Virus record (IMG/VR): IMGVR_UViG_3300018914_000001
Location: 32,001 to 96,000 of that record
From: a virus
Taxonomy: Duplodnaviria > Caudoviricetes
Direction: 5' to 3' (one strand)
Length of the DNA stretch: 64,000 nt
Positions 4,265-52,411 of this stretch are shown one piece after another. Numbering within the stretch: the first letter of the stretch is position 1; every line of letters begins with the position of its first letter. Below the pieces are notes generated by a model. That model ran no database searches. It was not told the DNA's origin and saw only the letters and a program-made list of their open reading frames with translations. The position numbers and the translations under genes are program-made.

Positions 4265-4272
4265 ATACTTCG

Positions 4273-34222: not shown

Positions 34223-34258
34223 TGTCAACACTCCTTTAATCCTGATGAAATCAACGAT

Positions 34259-34459
34259 TTATTGAAACCATTTAATTGCGTTTACGTCAAGGTGCTCTCC
34301 ATCTACGACTTCAATGAAACGTTTGTAGAACTCCCCAGATTGTACTACTTTCCACTGGGCTGTTTCTTTGTCGATGCCTACGAGCAGTTTGTCTGGCTCT
34401 ACATCAAATACATACCAGTCATGCACCATTCCAAACATTACACCTTTTGCGCTTTTCAT
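34259..34459 (-). CDS. hypothetical protein
   Basis: AAGGAGTGTT RBS. Confidence 0.65.
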   Translation of the reverse strand: MKSAKGVMFGMVHDWYVFDVEPDKLLVGIDKETAQWKVVQSGEFYKRFIEVVDGEHLDVNAIKWFQ

Positions 34460-34553
34460 TTTCAGAACACTCCTTCAACAAGTTTAATTCCTATTTTGAT
34501 TAAACTGCTCATCTAAGCCCCATAGTTTTCTATGAGGCTTAGTCAACAGTCAA

Positions 34554-36830: not shown

Positions 36831-36978
36831 TATAACAACTCCTTTTTGTACGGTCTGATGGGCATAGCATCCCCAATGTTTCTATTGTACTATACCCTCC
36901 TGATTATTGCAAGGAATATTTAGCGAAATTGCTTGCTAAATAGCACCCACCATTTAGATGAGTGCTATTAATAAGCAA

Positions 36979-37410
36979 TCAGTGTTGGCTATTTAGAAGC
37001 GCAATCATTTCTTCTAACTCTTCCTCTTTTATGTGATAGATGCAAAAATAAAATTCATCATTGATGTCATTGCCATACTTGATAATAGCTTTTAAGCGAT
37101 TGTAACCACTTACAAGAACGAATTTATTTCTGTCTTCATTGTAAGCAAAGTGTATATCAGGAGTGATAGGGTATCCATTTCGTCTTAATTCTATCAACTC
37201 CTGAAGTTCTTTTTCAGGAGGCAGGGCATGTTGTAATAACTCTTTTGCTGATTCTACATCATCGAAGCCCATTTTTTCTAGCAGACTTTTTACTTGAGAG
37301 TAGTGAACATGAGAGCTGTAAACAAGCATATCTTCTTTAGATAAGCGAAAGTTAATCCTAAATTTAATACCATCAATCTCATAGAACTTTTTGATTTGGT
37401 TATCTTTCAT
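36979..37410 (-). CDS. hypothetical protein with ParB/DUF262-like motif
   Basis: FVLVSGYNRLKAI; AAGGAGTGTT RBS. Confidence 0.65.
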   Translation of the reverse strand: MKDNQIKKFYEIDGIKFRINFRLSKEDMLVYSSHVHYSQVKSLLEKMGFDDVESAKELLQHALPPEKELQELIELRRNGYPITPDIHFAYNEDRNKFVLVSGYNRLKAIIKYGNDINDEFYFCIYHIKEEELEEMIALLNSQH

Positions 37411-37454
37411 TTGCCAACACTCCTTTTGCTATTGATAACTGCTCAATTCCACAT

Positions 37455-37470
37455 TGTTTCACGTGAAACA
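37455..37470. promoter_or_regulatory. parS inside cassette hairpin
   Basis: TGTTTCACGTGAAACA perfect palindrome. Confidence 0.85.
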
Positions 37471-37491
37471 ATGTGGTGTTCAACAGTCATA

Positions 37492-37656
37492 TTAAGAACT
37501 TAGTGTAACGCTTTTATGCTCTTTCCAATCCTTGTATTCAAAGGGGTATCTTTTACATGCTCTTTCAAATTTTTCCCTTGCCTCCTCTTCTGTGTCTGCC
37601 ATACAAAAATCAACAGCAACTTTTTTACTAGTGACTGCCTTCCACCATTTTGACAT
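37492..37656 (-). CDS. cassette ORF, 54 aa
   Basis: Hand translation MSKWWKAVTSKK... Confidence 0.55.
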   Translation of the reverse strand: MSKWWKAVTSKKVAVDFCMADTEEEAREKFERACKRYPFEYKDWKEHKSVTLSS

Positions 37657-37659
37657 AAA

Positions 37660-37830
37660 TCACCAACCCCTTCCAGATTTGTATTTGCCATCCTGTACAG
37701 ATTTGCAGATAGCGGCATCATATCCTGCGTCTCTACACTTACGGTAGCTATCGTTGTGATTGCCACTGCACCCTGCCAGCAGGATAGCCGCAACGCTAAT
37801 GATGACAACGAACTTAGAGAGCTTTTCCAT
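37660..37830 (-). CDS. cassette ORF, small lipoprotein
   Basis: MEKLSKFVVIISVAAILLAGC lipobox; GGAGTGTG RBS. Confidence 0.7.
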   Translation of the reverse strand: MEKLSKFVVIISVAAILLAGCSGNHNDSYRKCRDAGYDAAICKSVQDGKYKSGRGW

Positions 37831-37968
37831 GTTAACACACTCCTAGTTAAATTTGTAGTCATAAGCCGATAGTCCCCATTCTATTCCAGAATCAGTAGCT
37901 ATATACCTACGTCTGCAAAATTAACTGCTCAATCGAACAGCATTATACAACGCTGTTCTGTTCAACAG

Positions 37969-38250
37969 TCAAGAGAATCGCGCAGGAATTTGATTCAATG
38001 CATACATAACGAGATTGTAAATGTCCACGTTGCCTTCAGACGGTTCGATGTCCCAACCTCTATCGTAGTTGCATACATTCTCTATCTGCAACTTAGAAAC
38101 CCTTCCATTATCAATACCAAACATTGAACCAATATCAAACACTTTAGCAGAAAATTTAATTCCATTTACATTACCGCTAACCCAATTCGACTTAGAATCG
38201 AAATAAAGATTAATGATGTTACCGTTTACTTCGATAGTTTGAGTTATCAT
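37969..38250 (-). CDS. cassette ORF, DUF7678-like
   Basis: FSAKVFDIGSMFGIDNGRVSKL...NYDRGWDIEP. Confidence 0.7.
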   Translation of the reverse strand: MITQTIEVNGNIINLYFDSKSNWVSGNVNGIKFSAKVFDIGSMFGIDNGRVSKLQIENVCNYDRGWDIEPSEGNVDIYNLVMYALNQIPARFS

Positions 38251-38302
38251 TATAAACACTCCTTTAATTTTTATTTGAGCTATTAACTGCTCAATCTTGC
38301 AC

Positions 38303-38318
38303 TGTTCCACATGGAACA
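38303..38318. promoter_or_regulatory. parS-like site inside cassette hairpin
   Basis: TGTTCCACATGGAACA. Confidence 0.65.
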
Positions 38319-38334
38319 GTGCAATGTTCAACAG

Positions 38335-38517
38335 TTAGGGCTTTTCTTGGCTCTCAGCAATCAACTCTGAGAGCGGGCGAACAGGGATAATCAGCAAACT
38401 CCCATCTCTTCGCATGTCAGTCTTGTATTGACCGCCGCCCAACTGCTTGTTGATGGCTTCCAAGTCTACAGAGGCAGTACCATCAGGAGTAAACTTTACA
38501 AAGTCCATTTTCTCCAT
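38335..38517 (-). CDS. cassette ORF
   Basis: AGGAGTGTT RBS; stop inside repeat. Confidence 0.7.
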   Translation of the reverse strand: MEKMDFVKFTPDGTASVDLEAINKQLGGGQYKTDMRRDGSLLIIPVRPLSELIAESQEKP

Positions 38518-38604
38518 ATTTAACACTCCTTTTATTTTTGGTAACAGTATTAACTGTTCCATATACTAGGCGTTAACATAGCAGTTAACGCCTGTTAGCA
38601 ACAG

Positions 38605-38856
38605 CTAATTTTGTTTTTTGTAGAACTCCTCTAATTCTTCATCATAGTTTGACTCTACCCATTCAAGAATACAGTAACCCCCTTCCTCTATAATGGACTC
38701 TGAAGGGAAATATTGATCTTCACTTCTGTTATCTAAAGTGAAAATAACAACATTTGTCTTTTTATCAGACACCACTAGTTTTTTATATTCGAACCAACCC
38801 ACTTTGCAATACTGATATTCAACTTTAATTTTATCTTTAAATTTCCATTCGATCAT
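38605..38856 (-). CDS. cassette ORF
   Basis: RBS; stop inside repeat. Confidence 0.7.
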   Translation of the reverse strand: MIEWKFKDKIKVEYQYCKVGWFEYKKLVVSDKKTNVVIFTLDNRSEDQYFPSESIIEEGGYCILEWVESNYDEELEEFYKKQN

Positions 38857-38934
38857 AAGATTAGCTCCTTTATATTTTGTTAACTGCTCAATCGTACCCT
38901 CTCACTAATAGCAGAAAAGGGTACTGTTCAACAG

Positions 38935-39168
38935 TTAAAAAGGAAGGCAATTGCATCCTTGCGTCCCTTTGCAATGCTCACCCCAACATTTATTAACGTT
39001 CGCTGGCGGCTTAGGGTGTATGCAGTTAAACTTAAAAGCAACATGTTCATACTTGACGTAAAAGGGTACGCCGCGCCTTTTCCTGCTCTTTTTGTACTCT
39101 AAGTCAGTCATTCCATTACTGCCTACTTCCTCCTCACCCATCAGTTCCCAATGTCTCCAATCGCGCAT
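38935..39168 (-). CDS. cassette ORF (Cys-rich C-terminus)
   Basis: Stop inside repeat. Confidence 0.65.
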   Translation of the reverse strand: MRDWRHWELMGEEEVGSNGMTDLEYKKSRKRRGVPFYVKYEHVAFKFNCIHPKPPANVNKCWGEHCKGTQGCNCLPF

Positions 39169-39291
39169 ATTAACAACCGCCTTTCAGGGTCATTGTTACC
39201 AACTTCGATTTTTTTTAACCATTTAGTCTCCTCCTTTACTTTAATTTAACCACTCAATCGCCCTCATCCTGTAGATGAAGGCTGTCAATGG

Positions 39292-39528
39292 TTAAAGGTA
39301 TCTACGAGTGCAAAACTCTACTCTTTTTAATACTTCTTCTAAGGCAGATGTATAGCCAGCAAAAACAGGACTATCATTCAACTGTCTTAACGTATAACGA
39401 ATTTCGATTAAATAATGAAATGCCACATCACCACTGATATGCCCCGCATTAACATCCTTTGAAATACTATCTATTCGCTCATTGTAGATTCGTGCCAATT
39501 CAACTAAAGCATCTGCCATATTTTTCAT
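39292..39528 (-). CDS. cassette ORF
   Basis: RBS; stop inside repeat. Confidence 0.7.
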   Translation of the reverse strand: MKNMADALVELARIYNERIDSISKDVNAGHISGDVAFHYLIEIRYTLRQLNDSPVFAGYTSALEEVLKRVEFCTRRYL

Positions 39529-39622
39529 ACTTAGTCACTCCTTAAAAGGTTACTTTCATAGAGTTTAACTGCTCAATCGAGTGCTATGGTTTACATAGCA
39601 CTCTGTTCAACAGTTAAAGTCT

Positions 39623-39826
39623 TTACCGTTGCCTTTCTGGTAAATGAACCTGCTCCATTCCAAGCTGAATGGTTTGTTCAATAGTAACAGAGACTTTCAC
39701 ACTTCCGTCTCTGTAGAGGCGAATTGTGTCGCCTCCTTCAAACCATAGCTCGATATAGTCAAGTGCCTGATGTGTTTTTTGCAGGGTTTTACCTTCAAAG
39801 GTATTGATTCCTACTTCTTTTGCCAT
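39623..39826 (-). CDS. cassette ORF
   Basis: RBS; flanked by repeats. Confidence 0.7.
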   Translation of the reverse strand: MAKEVGINTFEGKTLQKTHQALDYIELWFEGGDTIRLYRDGSVKVSVTIEQTIQLGMEQVHLPERQR

Positions 39827-39911
39827 TGTTTATCACTCCTAGTTTAAATTTAACTGCTCAACTGAGTACCTTATATTGTAAGGTACTCTATCAGCGGTCA
39901 ATATAGAGTCC

Positions 39912-40088
39912 TTAAATTAGGTTGTGTTCTTTTGCGATGCTTGCCACGTCTTCCATACTTTGTTGAGACATATATACACATGACTCTCCTTTCTCTACTC
40001 TGTACTCTCTTGTCTCTATATCTTGTGAGACTAAGCACTCTCCATTGTTATACCATCTTTCAATAATCTTTTGAATTAACTCTTCCAT
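39912..40088 (-). CDS. cassette ORF, 58 aa
   Basis: Hand translation MEELIQKIIERWYNNG...; GGAGG RBS. Confidence 0.6.
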   Translation of the reverse strand: MEELIQKIIERWYNNGECLVSQDIETREYRVEKGESCVYMSQQSMEDVASIAKEHNLI

Positions 40089-40161
40089 TCAACCTTCCTC
40101 CTTGTTTGTAAATTTAACTGCTCAATGAACCGCCTTAACTTATAAGGCGGTCTATCAACAG

Positions 40162-40584
40162 CTAACCGTTAAGAAGTTTGAATAGTGCCTCTTCATTCAC
40201 ATCTGTAGTATAGATGTGAATGTGAATGTTATGATTGATAAGCACATCTTTAAAACTTTCGTGAACTGTCAATTCATCCCCTTCCATAAAAGTGTATTGA
40301 CCTAGACTAAGAATGGCATTGAGACTTATTACACCCTCTAGCAACGTATATCGGTTGCTGATAGTGTTGTATGTGTAAACGATATCAATACTCAATGGCT
40401 CTCTTGCTTCGCGAATCCATTTCTGAACTTTTTCGTATTTCACAATATTAGTAGCCTGAATGTCGCTTCGCTCTGTCGGAAGCCCCAACTGTTGCACTAG
40501 CGGAAGCACATAGGGATGCAGGATAGAAGTCATGAAATGATTCTTTTCAATTTGCACAAATTCAGCTACATTGTTTTTAAACAT
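40162..40584 (-). CDS. cassette ORF
   Basis: AGGAGTGTT RBS; stop inside repeat. Confidence 0.72.
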   Translation of the reverse strand: MFKNNVAEFVQIEKNHFMTSILHPYVLPLVQQLGLPTERSDIQATNIVKYEKVQKWIREAREPLSIDIVYTYNTISNRYTLLEGVISLNAILSLGQYTFMEGDELTVHESFKDVLINHNIHIHIYTTDVNEEALFKLLNG

Positions 40585-40659
40585 TGTCAACACTCCTTAG
40601 TTGTTTTTAACTGCTCAATTGAACACCCTAGAGTATAAGGTGCTCTGTTCAACAGTCAG

Positions 40660-40851
40660 TTATGCTTGGTAAATCTTCAATTGTTCTTCAAATTTGTAGA
40701 CACGTTCCATGCATTCATAATACTTTTGCAACCAGAAGTCTTTATTCTGATAATGCGGACTTTCAAACCTTTTAAGGCAACTTTCTGCATTTCTCAATGC
40801 TAATTCAATATTTTGTTCGAGTATGCAAATTTCAACGTACCATCTGTTCAA
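40660..40851 (-). CDS. cassette ORF
   Basis: Flanked by repeats. Confidence 0.65.
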   Translation of the reverse strand: MNRWYVEICILEQNIELALRNAESCLKRFESPHYQNKDFWLQKYYECMERVYKFEEQLKIYQA

Positions 40852-40921
40852 TTAAATCAACCCCTTATATTTTTAACTGCTCAATTGAACACATTACATT
40901 GTAATGTGTTCTGTTCAACAG

Positions 40922-41170
40922 TTAGGGCACATAGTTCATTTCAATTGAAACCTCATTAAGCAAGCACCATGTATAAACCATGCCAGCAATGTATTTTGAC
41001 TTGCACTCTTCCACCTTGCCCTTTAACACTAGTGTTCCCCATCCATTTTGCTCAGGTCGTTTAAATAATACCACCTCATCTGTAAAGTGCTTTACGAATC
41101 CACCAAGTCTACGCATATCGCTAGTATTGATTTTAGCTACTCCAATTTCCCATTCTTCAACATAAGCCAT
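40922..41170 (-). CDS. cassette ORF
   Basis: AGGAGTGTT RBS; stop inside repeat. Confidence 0.7.
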   Translation of the reverse strand: MAYVEEWEIGVAKINTSDMRRLGGFVKHFTDEVVLFKRPEQNGWGTLVLKGKVEECKSKYIAGMVYTWCLLNEVSIEMNYVP

Positions 41171-41245
41171 TGTTAACACTCCTTTGTAATTGTTTAACTG
41201 CTCAATCACCCACGCTTATTAGGTTAAGTGTGGGTTGTTCAACAG

Positions 41246-41515
41246 TTAAGAGCATGGTTCAAATTTTAACCTATGTGCAAAACAATAACCATTGATCCAG
41301 ATTTTTAGTCTTTCCTGAAACTGTTTACTTGCAACGGCTTGATCTGTTAGATGAATGTAAAAACTTACAACATCTCTAACTGCATCTTCGATGATTTCAT
41401 AGCCGTAGCTTAGGGTGATACCCATTTCCATCTTAACATCATTGACAAGCATTAAACGATGTGCTTGACTAATTTTTTTAACATATCCAATTCTTACTTT
41501 ATCTTGCATTTTCAA
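41246..41515 (-). CDS. cassette ORF
   Basis: RBS; stop inside repeat. Confidence 0.7.
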   Translation of the reverse strand: MKMQDKVRIGYVKKISQAHRLMLVNDVKMEMGITLSYGYEIIEDAVRDVVSFYIHLTDQAVASKQFQERLKIWINGYCFAHRLKFEPCS

Positions 41516-41582
41516 TCACTCCCTTGGTTATTATTCAACTGTTCAATCGAACACTCTATATTTAGAGTGCTCTGTTCAACAA

Positions 41583-41867
41583 TTAAATAACTTTATAATC
41601 ACGTGCTACAATATTTTCAGCACATCCGAATGTTTTACCTGTATTAAGATTGCGAAGATTGAAAACTCTATAATCAGGCTTTCCAGTAGGATAGCCATGA
41701 CTGTCAACATGTACCTCCATCCAATGTCCTTCAACATGGTATACATCACCGCTTATGATGCATTGAACATTCATGCCGTCTTGTAGGAACTCAGAGCGTC
41801 CTTCTAAATCTTGCCCCAACATTTCCTGAATCATGATACGATGTTTTCTTTTTAACAAGGCAAACAC
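41583..41867 (-). CDS. cassette ORF
   Basis: Stop inside repeat; start uncertain. Confidence 0.65.
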   Translation of the reverse strand: MFALLKRKHRIMIQEMLGQDLEGRSEFLQDGMNVQCIISGDVYHVEGHWMEVHVDSHGYPTGKPDYRVFNLRNLNTGKTFGCAENIVARDYKVI

Positions 41868-41936
41868 TCCTTAGATATGATAATTGCTCAATTACCCGCA
41901 CTATTAAAATGCGGGCTGTTCAACAGTTATCTCTGT

Positions 41937-42116
41937 TTAAATCTTGTTGATATTAAAAAATCCTTCTTCGATAAAGCCTGTTATTTTCTGTTTTTCTTGA
42001 AGGTCTAACGAATAAGGTCTGATGGGAAGTTCATTTCCATCAGACAATTTAGCCATGTATCCATATTGACCTTGGAATTTTTTGACAACTGTAGCAATGT
42101 AAGTTTTCTTTTTCAT
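41937..42116 (-). CDS. cassette ORF, 59 aa
   Basis: Hand translation MKKKTYIATVVKKFQG...; AGGAGTGTT RBS. Confidence 0.65.
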   Translation of the reverse strand: MKKKTYIATVVKKFQGQYGYMAKLSDGNELPIRPYSLDLQEKQKITGFIEEGFFNINKI

Positions 42117-42194
42117 AATTGAACACTCCTTAATATCATTTGAGTTTAAACGCTCAATCGCACACCTTAAACATTAAGGTGTGCTGTTCAACGT

Positions 42195-42434
42195 TTAATA
42201 GTCTACAGTGTCGCCACCCTCATCGTTTATCGTGAAAGTATGGTTCAACCCCTGCTGTTTTGCCCATTCCCTTAGTTGGTCTACAGTTTCGTAAACGTCT
42301 TCCTCTTCAAACAGGGTGCAGTCAGGATATTCCGCGCAAAAAGCAACGCCTGTAATATTCCCCTGCTTATCGCGACTGATTCGCTTGACATACTCTAAAT
42401 TTTCATTGGAGATAGCGAAGTTTTCGTTAGTCAT
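42195..42434 (-). CDS. cassette ORF
   Basis: AGGAGTGTT RBS; stop inside repeat. Confidence 0.7.
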   Translation of the reverse strand: MTNENFAISNENLEYVKRISRDKQGNITGVAFCAEYPDCTLFEEEDVYETVDQLREWAKQQGLNHTFTINDEGGDTVDY

Positions 42435-42476
42435 ATTGAACACTCCTTAGATTTTAATAACTGCTCAATGAAGTTG

Positions 42477-42492
42477 TGTTCCACGTGGAACA
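42477..42492. promoter_or_regulatory. parS inside cassette hairpin
   Basis: TGTTCCACGTGGAACA. Confidence 0.8.
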
Positions 42493-42507
42493 CAACTCTG
42501 TCAACAG

Positions 42508-42864
42508 TTATACTTCGATCTCATCTTGCGTGTACTTGCCACGCAAGCACGAAATGGTGTTTAGGATGTACTCGCAACGCTCTTTGTAATTCCATGTATT
42601 CCAGAAGTCAGCGGGAAAATCTTGACTGTTTTGAAAGAACGTTTCATCCATGATGTCAGCAGATGAAAGCACGTGAACGCCAGCGTATCCCCTTTTGTCA
42701 TTTTCGCTGTAGAGGACGTAAAACAATTCTCCGTTTACTTCCCATTCGTACCATTCGCCGCTGTCCTCACTACCTATTGAGGAAGTAGCCTCCTCAAAGA
42801 TTTCCTCATGAACAGTCAGTTGAATGTTGATAACAGAGGCTTGCTTGACATTGATACTCAACAT
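42508..42864 (-). CDS. cassette ORF (acidic)
   Basis: GGAGG RBS; stop inside repeat. Confidence 0.7.
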   Translation of the reverse strand: MLSINVKQASVINIQLTVHEEIFEEATSSIGSEDSGEWYEWEVNGELFYVLYSENDKRGYAGVHVLSSADIMDETFFQNSQDFPADFWNTWNYKERCEYILNTISCLRGKYTQDEIEV

Positions 42865-42865
42865 T

Positions 42866-43099
42866 TTACATTACCTCCTCTATTGTAACACCAGTTTTAA
42901 CAACTTGAATTTCAACACCAACATTAGAAGGGTTAAACGGCCTATCAACTTTTCGCCTCTTATTAATTTTAAACTTATTAGTAAGAGGTTTAATATTGAG
43001 ATTGTCGCCATCAACCTCTTCTACATATGCGTAGAAATTGTTAATGGGATTCTCGTATTGAATTAGAATAACGTCACCTTGCTTAACCTGTTCTGTCAT
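42866..43099 (-). CDS. cassette ORF
   Basis: AGGAGTGTT RBS. Confidence 0.7.
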   Translation of the reverse strand: MTEQVKQGDVILIQYENPINNFYAYVEEVDGDNLNIKPLTNKFKINKRRKVDRPFNPSNVGVEIQVVKTGVTIEEVM

Positions 43100-43212
43100 G
43101 TTGTTAACACTCCTTTGTTGATAAACTTAATCGCACTCACTTGTAAAATGAGTGCTGTTAAGTACATCATAAGTTTACTTTAATGAATTGAATAATTGTT
43201 ACACTTAATTCT

Positions 43213-43392
43213 TTACTTGTGCTTAGGGGCATCCATTTGCTTCCTTTTAGTTTTAAGTACACCTTTCCCCTGACTACCTTGCCCACAACTCGTATCATGA
43301 TTCTCTGCCCCTTTTTTTCGCCGTTGAGCCTCTTTTAAACCTTGTCTATAGGCATCTTCGATGTCTTTAGCGTTGAACTCAGAGATAGACAT
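43213..43392 (-). CDS. cassette ORF
   Basis: GGAGG RBS before MSISEF. Confidence 0.55.
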   Translation of the reverse strand: MSISEFNAKDIEDAYRQGLKEAQRRKKGAENHDTSCGQGSQGKGVLKTKRKQMDAPKHK

Positions 43393-43465
43393 TGCAACCC
43401 CTCCTAGTGTATGGCTTAAAAGCTCAATTGCCCTCACTTATATTTAAATGAAGGCTGTTCAACTT

Positions 43466-43684
43466 TTAATTCTCATCATGTACGGTAAAAGAGTAGCCTA
43501 ATTTGTTAAGTAAGTGCATTATCATCCACGACAATTCTTTGTCGTAAAATATATAGGACTCTTCATACTTATCAGTTGTTTTGACATCTCCATTGGGCAA
43601 GAGTCCAGCGTAATATAGCTTTTTGTTGTCATCATGCAAATACCAACCGTTAAATTCCTCTAATTCGATAAACTCTTCTACCAT
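43466..43684 (-). CDS. cassette ORF
   Basis: AGGGGTGTT RBS; stop inside repeat. Confidence 0.7.
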   Translation of the reverse strand: MVEEFIELEEFNGWYLHDDNKKLYYAGLLPNGDVKTTDKYEESYIFYDKELSWMIMHLLNKLGYSFTVHDEN

Positions 43685-43753
43685 AGTTAACACCCCTTAA
43701 ATTTAGTGTAACACCATTCGACACACGAGCCTGTCGTGCGTCTTAGCTGTCAA

Positions 43754-44050
43754 CTATTTGAGAAACAAGCACCCATAAGAGAAGATAAAAATGTCATGCC
43801 CAGCTTCCTTAAATGCCTGTTGGATTTCCAGATTATCACTAAACTTGATTTTTTCTTTCTCCATCCAACTTAATGAGTTAAGATACTCTGATGTCAAGCC
43901 TATACGTTTGATACTAACATTATCTAAGTTAAGTGCATACTCATATTGTTGAATTAACTCAGGTAGAGTGTCAAATTTAGACTCACCTTCACACCAACTA
44001 TTGACAGCGTTATACCAGCCTACAGCGATACCATATTTTTTAATCATCAA
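43754..44050 (-). CDS. cassette ORF
   Basis: AGGAGTGTT RBS. Confidence 0.7.
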   Translation of the reverse strand: MMIKKYGIAVGWYNAVNSWCEGESKFDTLPELIQQYEYALNLDNVSIKRIGLTSEYLNSLSWMEKEKIKFSDNLEIQQAFKEAGHDIFIFSYGCLFLK

Positions 44051-44114
44051 AACACTCCTTTCAAATTAACAAACTTAATCACGTCCACCTATTAGATGGA
44101 CGCTGTTAAGTGAG

Positions 44115-44300
44115 TTAATCTTTAAAGGGAACTCCTGTTTGACATCCATTAACAGGGCAAATATATATGCATCCTTTGTACATAACACCATCAATGATGG
44201 GAATAAAATCTTCTCCATATTCCGCTTGTGTTTCTTCATTCCATTCACGTTCATCAGAAACGGCACTGCAAGCAGGACATTGAACGTTATTTTGACTCAT
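44115..44300 (-). CDS. cassette ORF, Zn-ribbon
   Basis: CPAC...CPVNGC; GGAGG RBS. Confidence 0.7.
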   Translation of the reverse strand: MSQNNVQCPACSAVSDEREWNEETQAEYGEDFIPIIDGVMYKGCIYICPVNGCQTGVPFKD

Positions 44301-44368
44301 TTAATCAACTCCTCCTTTATTTAACAACTCAATCACGTTCACCTGTTAGATGAACGTTGTTCAGTGTG

Positions 44369-44602
44369 TTAAATGCGACTATGATTTTTAAGATAGTCTT
44401 CTATCTCATTCCAAATTGAAGAGATGTAAGGTATTTTAAATCCATAATCAATAGAAATTAGCTTTCGCTCTTTTATAACAAAAGTAAATTCATGCCGATG
44501 TGAACACTCATTGTAATAAAACTCTATCACACCCACAAAATCCCCTTCACCATCTTTGATAATATCGACAAATTCGTATAATTTTTCACCCATGCCTACC
44601 AC
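44369..44602 (-). CDS. cassette ORF
   Basis: Stop inside repeat. Confidence 0.65.
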   Translation of the reverse strand: MVGMGEKLYEFVDIIKDGEGDFVGVIEFYYNECSHRHEFTFVIKERKLISIDYGFKIPYISSIWNEIEDYLKNHSRI

Positions 44603-44686
44603 CCCCTTCTTATCGTTAAAATACTTGTTTTATAGAGCTTAACTGCTCAATTAAGTCCCTTATGAAATAAGGGACTCTATCAACAG

Positions 44687-44911
44687 TTACGCAAAGTCTA
44701 ATTCATAATCATACAAAGAGAAAGGAATGTTGGTTCCATCTTCTGTTTGCAAGTCATAGAGCGCACATCCTGCGGTTTCATCGAATCCTCTGTGTTCATC
44801 TCGACTAGTTGCCACACTTGCTACGGTAAGAACCATACCCATGTATTCTTCATAGTTTTCATTGTCACTGTCAATTACCACTTCATCACCAACATTAAAG
44901 TTTTGAATCAT
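44687..44911 (-). CDS. cassette ORF (SH3/KOW-like)
   Basis: FNVGDEVVI...PFSLYDYEL. Confidence 0.7.
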   Translation of the reverse strand: MIQNFNVGDEVVIDSDNENYEEYMGMVLTVASVATSRDEHRGFDETAGCALYDLQTEDGTNIPFSLYDYELDFA

Positions 44912-44983
44912 TTTGATAACACCCCCTAATTTTATTAACTGCTCAATTAAACACCCTAGCTTGTAGGGTGTTCTGTTCAACAG

Positions 44984-45220
44984 TTAAAATTGGTTTATTT
45001 TTTTCCAAAATTTTTCAAAGTCTTCATCAACCTTATCCTGATATTCCCATTTAAACAGTGTGTGGAATTTTTGCTTGGTTATTACCTCACTTCCGTTCTC
45101 CAAGAAAACCATCACCATTACTTCTTCTTCTCCTTGCACATCTTCAGCGTAATATTCACCACCAATTACAATAAAACTTTCGCCAACTAAAGTCGATTGT
45201 TGAGCAATAACTTTATACAT
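44984..45220 (-). CDS. cassette ORF
   Basis: AGGGGTGTT RBS; stop inside repeat. Confidence 0.7.
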   Translation of the reverse strand: MYKVIAQQSTLVGESFIVIGGEYYAEDVQGEEEVMVMVFLENGSEVITKQKFHTLFKWEYQDKVDEDFEKFWKKINQF

Positions 45221-45290
45221 ACCAACACCCCTTTTTGTTAAGTTGACTGTTCAATTAGTTACAGGAGTATTCCTGTAACCTGTTCAACAG

Positions 45291-45593
45291 TCATATAGTC
45301 TTTCTGCACAACCCTTTCACAATACACGTGTTACACATTGCAACGCCTTCCTCAGTGAGACTTCCACATTCGCAATTGCGTGTAATTGTCTTAATAAGGC
45401 TGTCAATTGCCGCTTCAGCCTTACTAAGACCTCTGTAAGTAGTTTCTGTGATAATGGTTCTATCTTTTCTCAGGTGTCTTACGATCAACGTCTTAGGGCT
45501 AGGATTAACCACTATAACATTTTCAATTTGAGGATGTACCCACGCGCTTCCAAGCTGAACGAATCCGTTTTCTCCTAGCTTTTCTTTGAGCAT
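45291..45593 (-). CDS. cassette ORF
   Basis: RBS; C-terminal CECG..CNTC. Confidence 0.7.
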   Translation of the reverse strand: MLKEKLGENGFVQLGSAWVHPQIENVIVVNPSPKTLIVRHLRKDRTIITETTYRGLSKAEAAIDSLIKTITRNCECGSLTEEGVAMCNTCIVKGLCRKTI

Positions 45594-45661
45594 ATTTATC
45601 ACTCCTTGTAATTGTTAACTGCTCAATCGCCCACACTGTTTAAATGTGAGCTGTTCAACAG

Positions 45662-45931
45662 TTATTTACGTTTCGGCTTGCCTTCCTCATCGTATGTGTC
45701 AGGATCAGCGCCAGTGCAATTCCAACCAAACATGGAACCCATCTCCATAGCCGCTCTTTGGGCTTTAGTAACGCCCAAGGTAGCGTTTAATTCATCCGCT
45801 GGGCGTTGATCTTTGCTTTTCCAGAAGCCCATTTCACCGCGCTTCAGCAGGATAATTTCACCTGTACTGCGAAGCGTTCCGTAACAAAACTCAGGCAATT
45901 TGTGTTCAATTTCATGATAAAAAACAGTCAT
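45662..45931 (-). CDS. cassette ORF, conserved small domain recalled from mobile-element proteins
   Basis: ADELNATLGVTKAQRAAMEMGSMFGW...ADP. Confidence 0.7.
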   Translation of the reverse strand: MTVFYHEIEHKLPEFCYGTLRSTGEIILLKRGEMGFWKSKDQRPADELNATLGVTKAQRAAMEMGSMFGWNCTGADPDTYDEEGKPKRK

Positions 45932-46010
45932 TTAAAACACCCCTTTAATGTATTAGCTTGATTAACAAGCTCAATCGCACCTACTTAATAAGTAGGTGCT
46001 GTTCAGCAAG

Positions 46011-46316
46011 TTAAATATCATATAGATCAATTGCATTATTAGGATTAAGAATTTTAATTTGAGTCCTCACCTGTTCATGGCATCCATTGCCCGCATTGCG
46101 CCAAAATTGGAAGGTTGCATACTCTTTTAGTCTTCTCCAATCAACTTTCTCAATTGTATGATAAGATTCATTGAATAGAATATCAATGTCTTCTTTTGGG
46201 ATAGTATCGCACGTTAACATATAACTGAGAATGTTTTGAGCAAAATCCTTGTCCTCAAACAGCACTAACCCATGAATGGCTGTTCTCATGTTGCGATAAT
46301 TAATAGCATAAATCAT
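46011..46316 (-). CDS. cassette ORF
   Basis: RBS; stop inside repeat. Confidence 0.7.
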   Translation of the reverse strand: MIYAINYRNMRTAIHGLVLFEDKDFAQNILSYMLTCDTIPKEDIDILFNESYHTIEKVDWRRLKEYATFQFWRNAGNGCHEQVRTQIKILNPNNAIDLYDI

Positions 46317-46393
46317 ATTCAGCACCCCTTTTCACCTTGTGTTTTAACAAGCTCAATTAGAAGGTTAACGCTGTTAACCTTCTTATCAGCATG

Positions 46394-46633
46394 TTAATTA
46401 ATGTAAGCCAGCGAAACTTCAATTTCTTTGCTGTTGAGGACTTGAATTTTCTTATCGAACATTTCCACGTCATCTTCATAGCTTTTCATCCCTGCCATGA
46501 CAACGCGCTGGACAGCTTTAGGAAGACACGAAAATTGTGTAGTAAGAATAAACGATTCAAGCTCTTCAATATCACGCTCTAAGCCCGCCTTGCTCTTAAT
46601 CATGTTGTACTTTTTGTCACGTTGAAATTCCAT
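46394..46633 (-). CDS. cassette ORF
   Basis: GGAGAGTG RBS before MEFQRD. Confidence 0.65.
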   Translation of the reverse strand: MEFQRDKKYNMIKSKAGLERDIEELESFILTTQFSCLPKAVQRVVMAGMKSYEDDVEMFDKKIQVLNSKEIEVSLAYIN

Positions 46634-47097
46634 ATTTAGCACTCTCCCTAGAATTGGTAGCTTAATTGCTCCATTGGTGGACACTTTAACAGTGTTCACC
46701 TAGCAACAATTAATGATTGTAATGCTGTTTAATATCTTTCAATACGGGCACAACATACTTCTTGAGGAGGTATAGGATGCCGTGTCCAATACCCATTCCA
46801 GCAACCCATGATGCAATTGCTACAACGTCATTCATTTGAAATTCCTCCATATGCGTTTAATAGCGCGTTTAATTTTGTCGAAGAGGGTTTTACGTTTGCC
46901 TATCACTTTCATGCTGTAGCTCCTCTATTTAATGATAATTGCACCGTTAACATAAAGATTTTTAAAATCTTGTTGTCGTTTCCACTTGGAGGCAAGTAAA
47001 ATAAGTTGCTTCCTAGTTAACAACATTTGCACCTCCTTTTATTGTATTAACTAACACCATCAGAGGCTAGATAAAACTCTAGCCTCTTAGCTGTTAG

Positions 47098-47421
47098 TTA
47101 GTCTTCTAAATAGTAGTTTGTCGGCACGTTTCCAACTAATGTAACATGATTCCCATTGGTATCATGCCAAATATACCATTTCACATGTTGTTCTAACGTC
47201 TCACCCTTGATTAAAAGCTCTTGCGGATCAATATTAGAATCGTGCGGCAAATAGATAGTCGCGTGACCATCACATTGCACCTCATCCCAATCTATGTTCC
47301 CCTCCTCATCCATTGGCATTTCACCGTTATAAATGGCTTTTTCACAATGTTCGCAAAAATGCGGTAAACCCTCCATATTTTCCCAATTAAGGTGATTACC
47401 ATTTGTGAATTTAGCTTCCAT
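47098..47421 (-). CDS. cassette ORF
   Basis: AGGAGTGTT RBS. Confidence 0.72.
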   Translation of the reverse strand: MEAKFTNGNHLNWENMEGLPHFCEHCEKAIYNGEMPMDEEGNIDWDEVQCDGHATIYLPHDSNIDPQELLIKGETLEQHVKWYIWHDTNGNHVTLVGNVPTNYYLED

Positions 47422-47507
47422 TTTAAAACACTCCTTTAAGTGTAGTTAGTGTTCATATTAATTAACACCATTAAACAGCCTATCAACTAGGCTGTTTTAG
47501 CTGTTAA

Positions 47508-47813
47508 TTACCAAAATTGAGCCATTTTAATTCGTCTTTTATACTCTTCTGCTTTAATACAACTGTGTGCACCTCTCTCTTTCATCCATCTTTCAACCAC
47601 TTCCCTTATATATTTAGGTATGGTTTCCCACGTCTTGCCCGCTGTAATACCTTCATAAACACCCATAGGCTCAGATGTAAGGGCGATAGTGGGCACATCT
47701 TTGACGATTATAAAACCATAGTCAGACCTGCCATACTTATGGTATCTAGCAATGGTTACTTGACCATTAAGAACACAATATACACACCAGTACTTATTTT
47801 CGAATAAGATCAT
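47508..47813 (-). CDS. cassette ORF
   Basis: GGAGTGTT RBS. Confidence 0.72.
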   Translation of the reverse strand: MILFENKYWCVYCVLNGQVTIARYHKYGRSDYGFIIVKDVPTIALTSEPMGVYEGITAGKTWETIPKYIREVVERWMKERGAHSCIKAEEYKRRIKMAQFW

Positions 47814-47892
47814 TTAAAACACTCCCTTGGAATTGTGAATTAACAACTCAATCAGCCTTAACATATTGCTGTTAAGGCTTATCAGTAGTTAA

Positions 47893-48306
47893 TTAACCAT
47901 AAATAAGCTCACCAAACAGGGCATATTGGAAAATGCAGTCATACGTGGTAGCGTCTGCATTTTCTAGGTCACAATCGAAAGGGCGTTCCATAGCATTCAG
48001 TTTAATGCCATCAAGGAGCTTTTTCTTTGTAAGCCGCAAGTCCTTTCCATCGTACTCTTCCACGTCACGGAAAACCACACTCTTGCGATTCAAAAGCAGA
48101 TGAGTTATCCATTGAGAGAGCGGAATACCCTTTGGCTTATCATCCCATTCCTTGCGGTCATTCTGAATTTGCGCCCAATAGTTAGTTCCACCCTCTACCG
48201 CGCCACAGATAACATTGTCAATGTCGTTTGCTGTCAAATTCAGAACGCTCTTTCCGTTGCGGACAGTTGCAATCACCTTTTCGGAATCGAAGTTGATAAG
48301 TGGCAT
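47893..48306 (-). CDS. cassette ORF, conserved phage protein
   Basis: AVEGGTNYWA...DADxxDCIFQYALFGELIYG-type motif. Confidence 0.75.
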   Translation of the reverse strand: MPLINFDSEKVIATVRNGKSVLNLTANDIDNVICGAVEGGTNYWAQIQNDRKEWDDKPKGIPLSQWITHLLLNRKSVVFRDVEEYDGKDLRLTKKKLLDGIKLNAMERPFDCDLENADATTYDCIFQYALFGELIYG

Positions 48307-48382
48307 ATAAAACACTCCTTTAGTATTTTAGTTAACACCATTAGACATATGATAAACTCATATGCCTTAGCTGTTAACTTTA

Positions 48383-48586
48383 TCAAACAGTGATGGACTC
48401 TATTTCCTCAAACTTAAATGTAAACTCCTGTACACCTTCTACCGTTTCATAGGCTAGTGTGACTGAATTTTTACAAATATCTAATACGTCACCATGCACA
48501 CATGCGCCGTCTCCATGAATAGTAACCATGCGACCATTTGCATATGCTTCTACAATCATGTTTAAGATATTCTCATATTGACTCAT
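48383..48586 (-). CDS. cassette ORF
   Basis: AGGGGTGTT RBS. Confidence 0.7.
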   Translation of the reverse strand: MSQYENILNMIVEAYANGRMVTIHGDGACVHGDVLDICKNSVTLAYETVEGVQEFTFKFEEIESITV

Positions 48587-48656
48587 ATATTAAACACCCC
48601 TTTAGTAATAATAATTAACACCATTGGAGCCACTATTGGTTAGTGACTCTTAGCTG

Positions 48657-48830
48657 TTAATTAAATCTTCCCTTATCCAATGCCCTTTGAAGATTGCGAG
48701 AGCGTCCCCTATCATGTCTAGCCGCCCCCAATTCACAACGAATTATAAAGGAGATGATGTAAGCGTAGTCATCAAATCGCTTATTAACACGAAAATCACG
48801 TTTAAATCTAGCTAGATCGCGCATTTGCAT
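48657..48830 (-). CDS. cassette ORF, 57 aa, basic
   Basis: Hand translation MQMRDLARFKR...; stop inside repeat. Confidence 0.55.
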   Translation of the reverse strand: MQMRDLARFKRDFRVNKRFDDYAYIISFIIRCELGAARHDRGRSRNLQRALDKGRFN

Positions 48831-48903
48831 TATGATATGCTCCTTTAATTATTAATTTAAATGCACAATTGCGCCCACTCATAGAGTGGACGCTGTTACG
48901 CAT

Positions 48904-49116
48904 TTAATTTTCATCATACCACACTTGACACTCTTCCCAAGTCACAAGGTCACACATTTCCTCATTCTGGTAAAACATCATGCGGATTCGATAGGCAATA
49001 CCTTCCACAAGATACCATTCATGTAATGATAAGGCGATTTGAAGAAGGTGAATTACCTCAGATTTACTCCATCTCTTTTTGGTTTTAAGAGATTCAATTA
49101 ACTGCTGTTTATTCAT
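48904..49116 (-). CDS. cassette ORF
   Basis: AGGAGTGTT RBS. Confidence 0.7.
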   Translation of the reverse strand: MNKQQLIESLKTKKRWSKSEVIHLLQIALSLHEWYLVEGIAYRIRMMFYQNEEMCDLVTWEECQVWYDEN

Positions 49117-49191
49117 GTGTAACACTCCTTTAGAGTAACATGTTTAACATGCTCTATTGAGCGAGTAATTTTTACTCACTCTAACAACATG

Positions 49192-49329
49192 CTAAATCAT
49201 GTCTCCATGACAGCCTATGTCATACTGTTCATAGCACTCTTTGCATTCAACACGTACTGCATCCTCATCAACAAGAATGATTCCATCGTGACAACCACAA
49301 TCGCATATGAACAAAATTCTAAAATCCAT
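49192..49329 (-). CDS. cassette ORF, 45-aa Zn-ribbon
   Basis: MDFRILFICDCGC...CKEC; AGGAGTGTT RBS. Confidence 0.6.
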   Translation of the reverse strand: MDFRILFICDCGCHDGIILVDEDAVRVECKECYEQYDIGCHGDMI

Positions 49330-49412
49330 TTACAACACTCCTTAATCAATTGTAGTAAGAGGTTAATTCCTCCAGTGGTTACATTAACAACGTTAATGTA
49401 ACCTAGCAGGAA

Positions 49413-49577
49413 TTAGAATTTGTCTTGTGAATCAATCCATTCTTCAGCCTCTTGCACACTGTCGCATTCCCATTCTAATTGCCCATCTTTGAAAATCCAG
49501 ATGGGATAACTAGCCTCATCACGTGCGGTAGTTTCTTTGATAATGTGACCTTTGTATTGTTTAATTTTCTTTGCCAT
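49413..49577 (-). CDS. cassette ORF, 54 aa
   Basis: MAKKIKQYKGHII...EAEEWIDS. Confidence 0.65.
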   Translation of the reverse strand: MAKKIKQYKGHIIKETTARDEASYPIWIFKDGQLEWECDSVQEAEEWIDSQDKF

Positions 49578-49646
49578 GTTTAACCACTCCTTTTAATTAA
49601 CTGCTCAATTGCCCATTACAGTATAGCTGTAATGGGCTATCAACGG

Positions 49647-49973
49647 TTAATTGGAGAAAATTTTCATGTAATAATATTCGTAAGTGAATTTAATTTTCTC
49701 TGTCACAACTCTACGCATATCGAGCATAGAATTAGACATCCTGTTATCTTCCAAGAGCTTAACAGCCTTCATCCCTTCCGCGATTTCCCAAAGAGAATTT
49801 GCAAGACGTTTTTCCTCTTGCAACATGTTATCCCATTTCTCTTCAGAAAGAGGAGAGTTGTTGAATGTACTTAACATTTCACTGAACATGTTTACATAGA
49901 CATCTTCAAAAATATTTTTTCCACCAAATTTAAAATTAAATTCAGCAATGTTAATATTAACTTTGTTAGACAT
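49647..49973 (-). CDS. cassette ORF
   Basis: AGGAGTGTT RBS before MSNKVN. Confidence 0.7.
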   Translation of the reverse strand: MSNKVNINIAEFNFKFGGKNIFEDVYVNMFSEMLSTFNNSPLSEEKWDNMLQEEKRLANSLWEIAEGMKAVKLLEDNRMSNSMLDMRRVVTEKIKFTYEYYYMKIFSN

Positions 49974-50059
49974 ACAAAACACTCCTTTAGTGTTAGTGTT
50001 AGTAGCATTTAACATGCTCTAGTGGATGGTTTACGTGTGTAAACCATCCTAACAGCAGG

Positions 50060-50386
50060 TTAAACAGAGAGTTCGAAATAGTTCTTGTTTTCGTTTTCGT
50101 CATTGCAAACAATGATTAACATGTTGTTTTCAGTGATACTGAAGTGGCTGACAGGCAGATACAAACCTTCATAAATAAGAATGTATTCATTGGTAGCGTT
50201 GTACATAGCGTAGCCATCAGAAGATGTATAAGCCAAGCCAAAAAAGTCAGACATGGAAGTAGTAAAACGATACCCATGTTCCTCTTCCATCCATTCAGCT
50301 AACATTGCCTCAATGCCGTGAAGTTCAATGTTGCTCATATCTTTTTTGAAGTTAACATTAAGTTGTTCAATTTTTCTGATTTCCAT
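50060..50386 (-). CDS. cassette ORF
   Basis: AGGGGTGTT RBS; stop inside repeat. Confidence 0.72.
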   Translation of the reverse strand: MEIRKIEQLNVNFKKDMSNIELHGIEAMLAEWMEEEHGYRFTTSMSDFFGLAYTSSDGYAMYNATNEYILIYEGLYLPVSHFSITENNMLIIVCNDENENKNYFELSV

Positions 50387-50459
50387 TTAATAACACCCCT
50401 TAATTTTATTTAAAAGCTCAATCACTTACTACAGCGCGACTGTAGTAAGCTATCAGCAA

Positions 50460-50630
50460 TTAAATAATAGTCATCATATGCGGTGCAACAGCAACGCGCC
50501 GCATGTAGGTGTTGTTAGATTCTAACCTAATTTCTTCTGCTACGCTCTCATGCTCCCAAGATTCAGTGTGTTCAGCGTAGTTTTCAGCGTCAATTGCTTC
50601 AATCAATTCATCTTCAAATGTGTATACCAT
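50460..50630 (-). CDS. cassette ORF, 56 aa, acidic
   Basis: MVYTFEDELIEAID...; stop inside repeat. Confidence 0.6.
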   Translation of the reverse strand: MVYTFEDELIEAIDAENYAEHTESWEHESVAEEIRLESNNTYMRRVAVAPHMMTII

Positions 50631-50700
50631 TTAAAATCACTCCTAATTAGTTTTAAAAGCAAAATGACCGCTACCAGTGTTGATAGCGGCTGTTTCACTT

Positions 50701-50937
50701 TTAATACTGTTTAATACCTGCTTCATTGAGCCATTGAAACAGTTCCCAAGGGTAGTTAAATTCCATTTGAAAAGAACCTACTGTAGAATCATCGTCACTT
50801 AATTCTGTAAATACTGCTTTAATTCTTAACCCCTCATCTGTGAAGGCATCAATTTTAAATCTTTTATCAACTTCAGCTTGATAAAGTTGACCTGTAAATG
50901 AGAAGTTAAAAGCACCAGTCACGAATAAATGTTTCAT
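50701..50937 (-). CDS. cassette ORF
   Basis: GGAGTGTG RBS before MKHLFV. Confidence 0.7.
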   Translation of the reverse strand: MKHLFVTGAFNFSFTGQLYQAEVDKRFKIDAFTDEGLRIKAVFTELSDDDSTVGSFQMEFNYPWELFQWLNEAGIKQY

Positions 50938-51008
50938 ATTTAACACACTCCTTAATGTGATTAACAGCAAAATTACTGCTACCAATGTTGATAGCAGTTG
51001 TTTCGATG

Positions 51009-51197
51009 TTAAGCGTTGTCTAATATCTCTAACAATTCTTGTAATACAAGTTTAAAATAAATACGTTCACTTACGACTGCCCGCCACTTCTTTGCCTCTC
51101 CTTCCATCTCCTTCTTCTCGCAAGAAAGGAGAAGAGATCGAGCAATTTCGATAGACTTACTTACATCGTCAATTTGTTTCATAAGATATTCTCTCAT
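51009..51197 (-). CDS. first cassette ORF of the array
   Basis: GGAGTGTG RBS before MREYL. Confidence 0.7.
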   Translation of the reverse strand: MREYLMKQIDDVSKSIEIARSLLLSCEKKEMEGEAKKWRAVVSERIYFKLVLQELLEILDNA

Positions 51198-51209
51198 ATT
51201 TAACACACT

Positions 51210-52238
51210 CCTTAGTTGAGTTAAAGTGCTGTTGATGAGTTCCGTTTTAGAAACGCATTAACAGCCCATTAAATCAGGCTGTAGAGACTTAATGGAAGAG
51301 GGGGAGAGGAACAGCAATACCCTGCTCTGCAATTGGTTCTAACTTCCAGTTTGCACCTACAAGTATTCTAAATCACGTTCCGCGCCGCCACGCTGTAGGC
51401 TCTAACCTTCCGTTTGCACCCATTGTTGGGACTTACATTGCTGTCTCCTCTCCCTCTCTCCCCTGTCTCGTTTGGAGTGTTAGGAGTGTTAGGAGTTGGC
51501 CTATTCCGCGCTCGTTTGGTGTATCACGCTGTTACACGCTTTCCCATTCTCGACCGCTTGACGCGCTTCACTGCCTCCCTCAACCATTCGCAAGCCACCT
51601 GAAGCATGACTCTGTTGACTAGTCGAGACAAGCCCTATAGCAAGCTATAGGCGTATCGTCGCACGTTCCCTTGGATTCCTCTACCTCTTTGCCTAACTCA
51701 CTGTCGCGCTTAACAGCGTGGACAGGAGACAAGTCCCTTATGGTTTGCTTCACGTATGGTATCGGACGTTAACAGACCTAGCAGGGATAGCAAGAGGATA
51801 GAGGCAGTTCAATGCCTATCCAATCAGGCTACAGTTTGAAGTTGTCAAGGTGCAGTAAAACGGTTAATCCCTCACGTTAGCTTGGGCCTCGATACAGTGA
51901 AGTGGACGGCAACTGCACAAACTTGCCTATAGATCAGCAAGCCCGCCATCAACCACCCTGCTAACGTGCCTCCTCTCGTTTCGTTAGGATTTCACCCCTC
52001 ACCTATGGTGTATCATGCCCTTTGACTGCCCTTTGAAGTCCCCGCCTATAGGGATGGTTCTGGCAATCTCTAGCCATGAGCCTCTAGGACTCTTGGAGTG
52101 ATTTAGACTAGTCGCACAGTGGGTTTTCAGGCTTGCATACGCCATGTTGCACCTGAACCTGTTGGCTGACTAGCATTGCGGTCTATTCAATTCTCTATTC
52201 GGTTGGTGTTGCGTCTTGCGTGTGTTGCGTGTGTTGCG
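51210..52238 (-). ncRNA. ~1-kb ORF-free 5' leader / putative structured RNA of the cassette operon
   Basis: Downstream of sigma-A promoter; visibly GC-richer than flanks; hairpins, internal repeats and tandem anti-RBS motifs. Confidence 0.5.
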
Positions 52239-52243
52239 AGATC

Positions 52244-52272
52244 AGAATAGCACACACGAACGATAATTGCAA
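52244..52272 (-). promoter_or_regulatory. sigma-A promoter of leader/cassette operon
   Basis: TTGCAA-17-TATTCT with extended -10 TG. Confidence 0.6.
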
Positions 52273-52411
52273 ATTCGTACATAATGTTCGTGTTTTTGGC
52301 TATTGATACGCTAAATTCGTGCTATAGTGTGGGGAAAGATGGCCAAAACACGAACATTTGTTTATTGGATAGTCAAGAACTAAACTTCTTCGGAGGGTTA
52401 AATGGATATTT

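Follow-up and report, generated by a model that had tools for sequence, protein, structure and literature searches.

Leaders that sequester a Shine-Dalgarno (SD) sequence in cis are known from riboswitch expression platforms, RNA thermometers and the leaders of ribosomal-protein operons. The c4 RNA of phages P1 and P7 is reportedly a small processed antisense RNA, derived from a leader and directed at one operon-specific target; Rfam includes a c4 family. Sites cut by RNase III also occur in the T7 and lambda N leaders. Bacillus RNase III is reported to cut the early mRNA of phage SP82 (cited in PMC4838370). Bacillus subtilis has small RNAs (sRNAs), RoxS and FsrA, with several single-stranded C-rich motifs that pair with the SDs of target mRNAs and are neutralised by the G-rich regions of a sponge RNA, RosA (PMC8216469). 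Here, we analyse a 64,000-nt stretch of DNA from a soil phage (the window), bases 32001-96000 of the 158,514-bp virus record IMGVR_UViG_3300018914_000001, which has direct terminal repeats; positions below are those of the window. On its minus strand, in the putative leader of a block of small genes, lies a tract of three tandem units complementary to an extended ribosome-binding site (RBS) found in that block. Judged by its sequence, this tract is most likely a translation-control element.

The locus resembles each of these systems in part. As in SD-sequestering leaders, an anti-SD strand would mask the RBS of the gene that follows it, and whether it does so would depend on alternative pairings; unlike them, the phage has three tandem anti-SD units in a 1-kb leader that matches no Rfam family, and its unit fits the class consensus better than the nearest RBS. 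The likeness to c4 is one of position and complementarity only: the tract precedes its candidate targets in the putative operon and complements RBS sequence further on. A processing signal and an Rfam match were not found here, and the candidate targets number up to 17-27. Compared with RoxS, FsrA and RosA, a neighbouring purine run with three GGAG would equal a built-in sponge. Those RNAs are short independent sRNAs acting on host metabolism, whereas the phage element is embedded in an operon leader, carries CUCC instead of C-runs, is followed by no terminator-like site and has its candidate targets on its own transcript. Set against the features of RoxS/FsrA/RsaE-type RNAs, SD complementarity is present, a terminator-like site of its own and an Rfam match were not found, and accessibility varies with the folding model. 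The likeness to RNase III sites lies in long helices within early polycistronic phage RNA of a Bacillus host: a predicted 27-bp leader helix and the intercistronic hairpins of ~22-25 bp are of substrate size.

The anti-RBS tract and its matching ribosome-binding sites

The features on which the comparison turns are these:
51474..51497, minus strand: the tract, three tandem anti-RBS units AACUCCU, AACACUCCU and AACACUCC
34234..49985, minus strand: span of the 17 exact copies of the RBS AGGAGTGTT, the potential targets, from a motif count
36979..51197, minus strand: small-gene block of ~35 genes, 28 of the 30 tested being without a PHROG family
51198..52237, minus strand: putative untranslated leader, 1,040 nt with ~50% GC, between a weak candidate extended -10 promoter and the first small gene
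52244..52272, minus strand: candidate sigma-A-type promoter (TTGCAA, 17-nt spacer, TG-extended TATTCT), with a probable start near 52237

Reading the minus strand confirmed the sequence and the coordinates (51497-51474) that an earlier note on this DNA had given for the tract. As DNA its units are AACTCCT (51497-51491), AACACTCCT (51490-51482) and AACACTCC (51481-51474). They had been called tandem exact complements of AGGAGTGTT, a description that suits the middle unit (exact 9-mer) and the third (exact 8-mer) but not the first, a 7-mer variant that complements AGGAGTT. The sequence AACACTCC has 21 matches on the two strands of the window, against 1.71 +/- 1.40 in shuffled sequence (none of 100 shuffles reached 21); 18 of these complement minus-strand RBSs, one complements a plus-strand RBS (59816) and two are the tract. 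Three CTCC spaced 2-6 nt apart occur at the tract and at no other site on either strand of the whole 158,514-bp genome. The tract was also the top site of the leader in a k-mer antisense scan, whose genome-wide control is confounded: the antisense strands of other genes hold RBS complements too. By our estimate, an exact 8-mer would turn up by chance within any particular 1,040-nt stretch with a probability of ~0.015, a figure left unmultiplied for the tandem copies because these may stem from a single slippage event. That the match between tract and RBS arose purely by chance is unlikely.

The RBS itself is class-specific. Minus-strand counts are 17 for AGGAGTGTT, 18 for GGAGTGTT and 29 for AGGAGTG, and every AGGAGTGTT copy on this strand (34234-49985) is an RBS, 3-7 nt ahead of a start codon. 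Among SD-plus-start candidates (173 in all, genome-wide), 21 of 26 with [AG]GGAG+TGT lie on the minus strand of genome positions 60-90 kb. By-eye tallies over 37 block start regions found GGAGUGUU in 18 and GGAGUG in 27; the earlier statement that the RBS is found at most cassette genes thus applies to the 6-7-mer core, the full motif being present at about half. Pairing energy favours the tract over the canonical anti-SD in 30 of the 37 block start regions, as against 61 of 158 elsewhere in the genome. Median pairing with the tract is -13.7 kcal/mol for the block and -10.0 kcal/mol for other genes, while with the canonical anti-SD the order is reversed (-10.1 versus -11.8 kcal/mol). The tract can form 9 bp with the consensus of 17 distal genes and 8 bp with the RBSs of the two nearest genes. 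When the entire leader was folded as a duplex with the individual start regions, the structures were long, loop-filled and uninformative.

The segment 52237-51198 would be the leader of a long early operon, with the tract ~740 nt into it. In a hexamer scan, the site at 52272-52244 is the sole promoter-like one nearby upstream of the tract, and inside the gene block no hexamer pair exceeds 10/12. Most of the leader coincides with a GC-rich island (51250-52250; 45-54% GC per 200-nt window versus 31-40% in the flanks). A long open reading frame (ORF) is absent from this island, and we rejected it as coding sequence on the grounds that its longest stop-to-stop frame spans 109 amino acids, on the plus strand. 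Known RNA families, including large phage non-coding RNAs, were likewise rejected for want of an Rfam covariance-model match: a scan of the window at gathering thresholds gave seven matches, all tRNA, and an E-value scan of 50900-52500 gave seven weak ones, all far under gathering scores. We found no terminator-like site on the minus strand between the putative transcript start (52237) and the first gene (51197), and no tRNA-like element or processing signal near the tract. At the 5' end of the putative leader (52200-52237, minus strand), CA-rich units resembling GCAACACAC are repeated directly one after another. Just upstream of the promoter lies a perfect 14-bp inverted repeat with arms 48 nt apart (52283-52296 and 52345-52358); together with CACGAA/TTCGTG copies seen by eye in and around the candidate promoter, it likely represents operator sites.

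Predicted alternative pairings in the leader

Folding of the leader involves four further features:
51437..51463, minus strand: purine run (three GGAG) then CAGCAAU; 5' strand of a long helix and the tract's alternative partner in nascent RNA
51294..51318, minus strand: AUUGCUG then pyrimidine run; 3' strand of the long helix
51202..51213, minus strand: RBS of the first small gene (RBS-1), AAGGAGUGUGUU, with its ATG at 51197; predicted cis partner of tract unit 2 or 3
51335..51420, minus strand: a pair of 23-nt direct repeats with 83% likeness (51420-51398 and 51357-51335), enclosed in the long-helix domain

The purine run GGGGAGAGAGGGAGAGGAG lies at 51463-51445, where it had been placed before, and the suggestion that it sequesters the tract in cis fits, by prediction, only an early or alternative state of the RNA. 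In an RNA ending before the pyrimidine run, each CUCC of the tract pairs with one GGAG, forming three helices with a predicted energy of -17.6 to -18.8 kcal/mol. Once the pyrimidine run (51318-51294) has been made, sequestration is no longer predicted: the long helix 51463-51437/51318-51294 comprises ~27 bp with two bulges at a predicted duplex energy of -37.9 kcal/mol, and at equilibrium the purine run is predicted to favour the pyrimidine run over the tract by ~19 kcal/mol. No other homopurine/homopyrimidine runs in the genome are as GC-rich as these two, and the 186-nt long-helix domain has a z score of -4.45, none of 200 shuffles being equally stable. After formation of the long helix, the tract is predicted to be unpaired in its 281-nt context (97.7th percentile). 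RBS-1 (51205-51212) can form eight contiguous pairs with unit 2 or 3 of the tract, at pair probabilities of 0.35 and 0.35 for the two units when the leader is folded alone and of ~1.0 when three genes are added. The minimum free energy structure of a 326-nt domain holds this 8-bp helix between tract and RBS-1 (-106.2 versus -98.2 kcal/mol with the SD blocked, a cost of 8 kcal/mol), and the domain has a z score of -3.5 with none of 100 shuffles equally stable. From this single sequence, three mutually exclusive pairings are predicted; what the analysis shows is the sequences, their complementarity and the energies predicted for them.

We tentatively propose a cis-acting RNA switch that has the tract as its anti-SD arm and would act at least on the first gene, a reading that we hold as possible, at somewhat less than even odds. 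The switch would occupy the 3' 300 nt of the long untranslated leader ahead of the early small-gene block and comprise four segments with mutually exclusive pairings: the tract (three CUCC), the purine run (three GGAG), the pyrimidine run 120 nt on and RBS-1. During RNA synthesis, the tract (segment 1) would be paired with the purine run (segment 2) until the pyrimidine run (segment 3) emerges and captures the purine run in the ~27-bp helix. The freed tract could then pair with RBS-1 (segment 4) and mask the RBS of the first gene. Resetting would fall to whatever opens or cuts the long helix, for which host RNase III is the obvious candidate, or alternatively to a factor bound to the enclosed two-repeat domain; neither an S21 nor an RNase III encoded by the phage was found. 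Because it matches the RBS consensus of the whole block, the tract may bind further RBSs of this long transcript as well. If the helix were cut, tract and RBS-1 would come to lie on different pieces, the 5' one carrying the tract close to its 3' end, and in this way the cis model could shade into action in trans. What we infer in this model is that the leader is transcribed, that it folds in the stated order, that RNase III acts on it and that translation is affected.

Intercistronic modules, relatives and genome context

The extended RBS is the last element of a larger repeated unit:
36979-50460, minus strand, e.g. 41177-41244: intercistronic modules, 64-94-nt spacers (roughly 75 nt) on one plan

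Each module runs from a stop codon inside UUAACUGUUGAACAG through a variable stem-loop, GAUUGAGCAGUUAA, ~10 nt, AAGGAGUGUU and 3-6 nt to the AUG. Its hairpin has two parts, conserved flanks (UUAACUG...CAGUUAA) with a conserved internal loop, and an inner stem that is variable and covarying. Across 25 aligned spacers, the paired cells amount to 85%, compared with 63% in shuffles and 36-44% with partners slid; the covariation score is 0.61 versus 0.25 in shuffles (none of 500 as high), and 13 of the 15 hairpin pairs show compensatory changes. Non-Watson-Crick cells, by our own tally, comprise ~53 G-U and ~12 A-C, an excess that favours folding of the sense strand as RNA over folding of the bottom strand as DNA. 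The RBS is unpaired in the consensus structure. These covarying hairpin modules stand on their own evidence, even if pairing by the tract is non-functional, and are candidate RNase III or processing/stability elements. A role as sigma-A promoters was rejected, as the hexamer scan found no hexamer pairs at usable spacing. The spacers after genes 1 and 2 (50975-50998 and ~50655-50695, minus strand) are of another kind, in which a U-rich tail (AAUUUUGCUGUUAAU or similar) comes after a 10-bp hairpin; the one at 50975-50998 was flagged as terminator-like by a scan, and both are possible attenuators dividing genes 1-2 from the remainder of the block.

Integron arrays consist of promoterless small ORFs, each with an attC site. 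The phage block is similar in that each small promoterless ORF is followed by a 55-62-nt imperfect palindrome with conserved ends (...AAC / GTT...) and a variable centre. It differs in that the RBS is part of the phage's conserved module and that the G-U excess fits RNA. We rejected an integron: an integrase upstream of the array was not found, and the tyrosine recombinase at 18211-19242, which matches no NCBIfam family (E <= 0.001), is 33 kb away.

The modules bear directly on how the RBS extension is to be read. The UGUU extension belongs to the repeated intercistronic module private to this phage; as part of that whole unit, it has in common descent or homogenisation an alternative reason for conservation, which may owe as much to these as to selection for pairing. 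Two leader copies of UCAACAG (51229-51235 and 51612-51618, minus strand) are complementary to the module's CUGUUGA, present 17 times in block mRNA; as that module motif comes close to being a palindrome, the evidence is ambiguous. A 339-amino-acid protein (29928-30947, minus strand) has an S1 RNA-binding domain of the CvfD/Ygs/GSP13 post-transcriptional-regulator type (E 4e-17, under the curated cut-off) and is a candidate RNA-binding partner of the RBS, tract or modules.

By protein kinship, the phage belongs with large Bacillales siphoviruses of the Tsamsa/Kenyattavirus kind. A 928-amino-acid TrwB-like protein is 47-50% identical to its counterparts in Bacillus phages BcoS-136, Tsamsa and others, and a 258-amino-acid regulator is 29-42% identical to versions in phages of Alicyclobacillus, Brevibacillus, Geobacillus and Bacillus. 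A tubulin-like protein, a replication-nicking protein, a helicase, a sigma factor and an integrase are among the PHROG matches. The identical phage was recovered as contigs in four runs labelled biocrust metagenome, and the variation among these four contig sets amounts to a single inserted T at 52559 in X2. Across 5.8 billion proteins searched, the closest non-self homologue of the helicase is 45-46% identical. Close relatives of the phage are absent from the public data searched.

Blastn with the leader returned no match in 50,697 phage records or 72,556 plasmids and, against the whole records of Geobacillus E3, Brevibacillus Sundance, Bacillus BcoS-136 and Tsamsa, only chance matches of 14-21 nt (E >=0.14). 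Locus searches in viral contigs with single proteins revealed no relative. A 15-nt pattern of the tract hit 28 stretches in viral contigs, none alike beyond the repeat itself. The module-plus-RBS pattern hit 19 stretches in viral contigs, all single chance or coding matches, and at least 116 in metagenome contigs, where none among the matches listed resembled the block; a stricter module pattern gave one chance match in genome contigs. In BcoS-136 and Tsamsa the helicase directly adjoins the partition block, and their small genes carry neither the module nor the RBS extension. In the comparison with four relatives, only this phage has the intercistronic modules.

Other features of the window lie apart from the leader and its block. 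A cluster of eight tRNA genes on the minus strand (690-4346; Pro, Arg, His, Ser x3, Glu and Cys) includes seven that reach the Rfam gathering score. A 409-amino-acid protein (27410-28639, minus strand) resembles sporulation-type SigE/SigK over residues 5-193 (E 2e-45, under equivalog cut-offs) and also falls in the PHROG phage sigma factor family. At the gene-strand switch, 53300-53900 is very AT-rich (22-31% GC) with a plus-strand GC skew of up to +0.84, making it a candidate replication origin. Three 17-nt iteron-like repeats (AAATAGGTCTTCAGACC family) and an inverted copy at 52433-52540, in the divergent region beside the tubulin-like gene (57364-58491), are a candidate centromere or origin element.

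Weighing the readings of the tract

Several observations weigh against a cis-acting switch. Its structural evidence is thermodynamic prediction from a single sequence, in which pairs 260 nt apart are unreliable, and we found no relative with which covariation in the leader structure could be assessed. Under local folding, the accessibility of the tract units is unremarkable (42nd-75th leader percentile at a 100-nt span, 78th-95th at 300 nt), and the long helix is equally stable on the plus strand (z -2.0 versus -2.3). The promoter, the transcript and the strand of the leader are themselves putative: the candidate promoter scores 9 including its TG, a weak match of 8/12 to consensus plus TG, and no minus-strand promoter in 50900-53200 passed a scan with a stricter threshold. 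Over the island's upstream 700 nt, z scores of 200-nt windows are only -0.3 to -0.9, which leaves the island as a whole unexplained. Finally, a purely cis element would not be expected to fit RBS-1 less well than the distal consensus. This same difference, 9 bp against 8 bp, is the best argument, on sequence grounds, for targets beyond gene 1. It also favours the proposal of the earlier note that one leader-derived RNA acts on dozens of cassette mRNAs. In such a model, a leader fragment that outlives the mRNA, or is released for instance when RNase III cuts the long helix immediately 3' of the tract, would pair in trans with the extended RBS of ~18-27 early genes and shut them off jointly. That the tract complements a class-specific RBS and lies upstream on the genes' own strand agrees with this proposal; so do the preference of 30 start regions for the tract, the weaker mean pairing of block RBSs with the canonical anti-SD (-10.4 versus -11.6) and the three tandem units, which suggest multivalency. 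Both parts of the idea have precedents, reportedly in c4 of P1 and in the pairing of C-rich sRNAs with SDs in B. subtilis (PMC8216469). The signs of a discrete RNA did not materialise, however: a terminator-like site between tract and gene 1, a tRNA-like processing signal and an Rfam match were all sought and not found. In addition, three sites per transcript would face ~35 RBSs on the same transcript, a stoichiometry that calls for further assumptions; nine base pairs make a short intermolecular duplex; local folding predicts no unusual accessibility for the RBS 9-mers (about the 40th percentile); and descent of the whole intercistronic module can explain the RBS extension. We consider joint repression in trans unlikely. 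An extended version, in which the SD extension of ~18-27 genes (AGGAGUGUU) would form a private translation code that weakens ribosome pairing and matches the triple anti-RBS, with the leader fragment, once the helix is cut or opened, as master repressor or timer of the whole block and the purine run as its built-in sponge, seems similarly improbable.

The tract could instead be a mere folding partner of the purine run, serving leader architecture, processing or stability, with the RBS match as a by-product. Any CUCC-rich strand that pairs with a GGAG-rich strand will look like an anti-SD, each of the three CUCC has its GGAG partner in the nascent hairpin, and local folding with a 100-nt span leaves the tract mostly paired. 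The match to the RBS, however, runs past CUCC through ACAC and AA to exactly the private UGUU extension, which pairing with the purine run would not need, and the ~19 kcal/mol by which the purine run favours the pyrimidine run at equilibrium speaks against such a partnership too. We regard this explanation as very doubtful. It is also unlikely, if a little less so, that the tract has no antisense role at all and reflects a chance 8-9-mer multiplied by slippage, a tandem site for a protein on double-stranded DNA, or SD-like motifs of the plus strand. The estimated chance of one exact 8-mer in the leader is not negligible across a whole-genome read, and unrelated viral contigs carry tandem 9-nt repeats of similar sequence; against this, no second triple CTCC exists in 158 kb, and the one present falls precisely within the leader of a block with a matching private RBS. 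The plus-strand variant, to which we assign a low probability, would place three SD-like motifs before a TTG-initiated frame (51497-51622) that stays open for 41 codons and has a 9/12 promoter-like site upstream (51200-51227, plus strand). This frame lies in 54%-GC sequence unlike phage genes, its TTG directly abuts the third SD-like motif, and its case is one of openness only, no further support having been sought.

Should pairing by the tract prove non-functional, a short tandem repeat in an unexplained GC-rich leader would remain. If the cis-acting switch is real, it would be a variant of known antisense and anti-SD control: a compact three-way RNA switch of anti-SD, SD-like decoy and decoy-catcher, with a possible link to host RNase III. 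With functional pairing, a large Bacillus-type phage would time or limit the translation of its early small genes by one RNA element, not by a protein, and the RBS of each gene would double as its address label.

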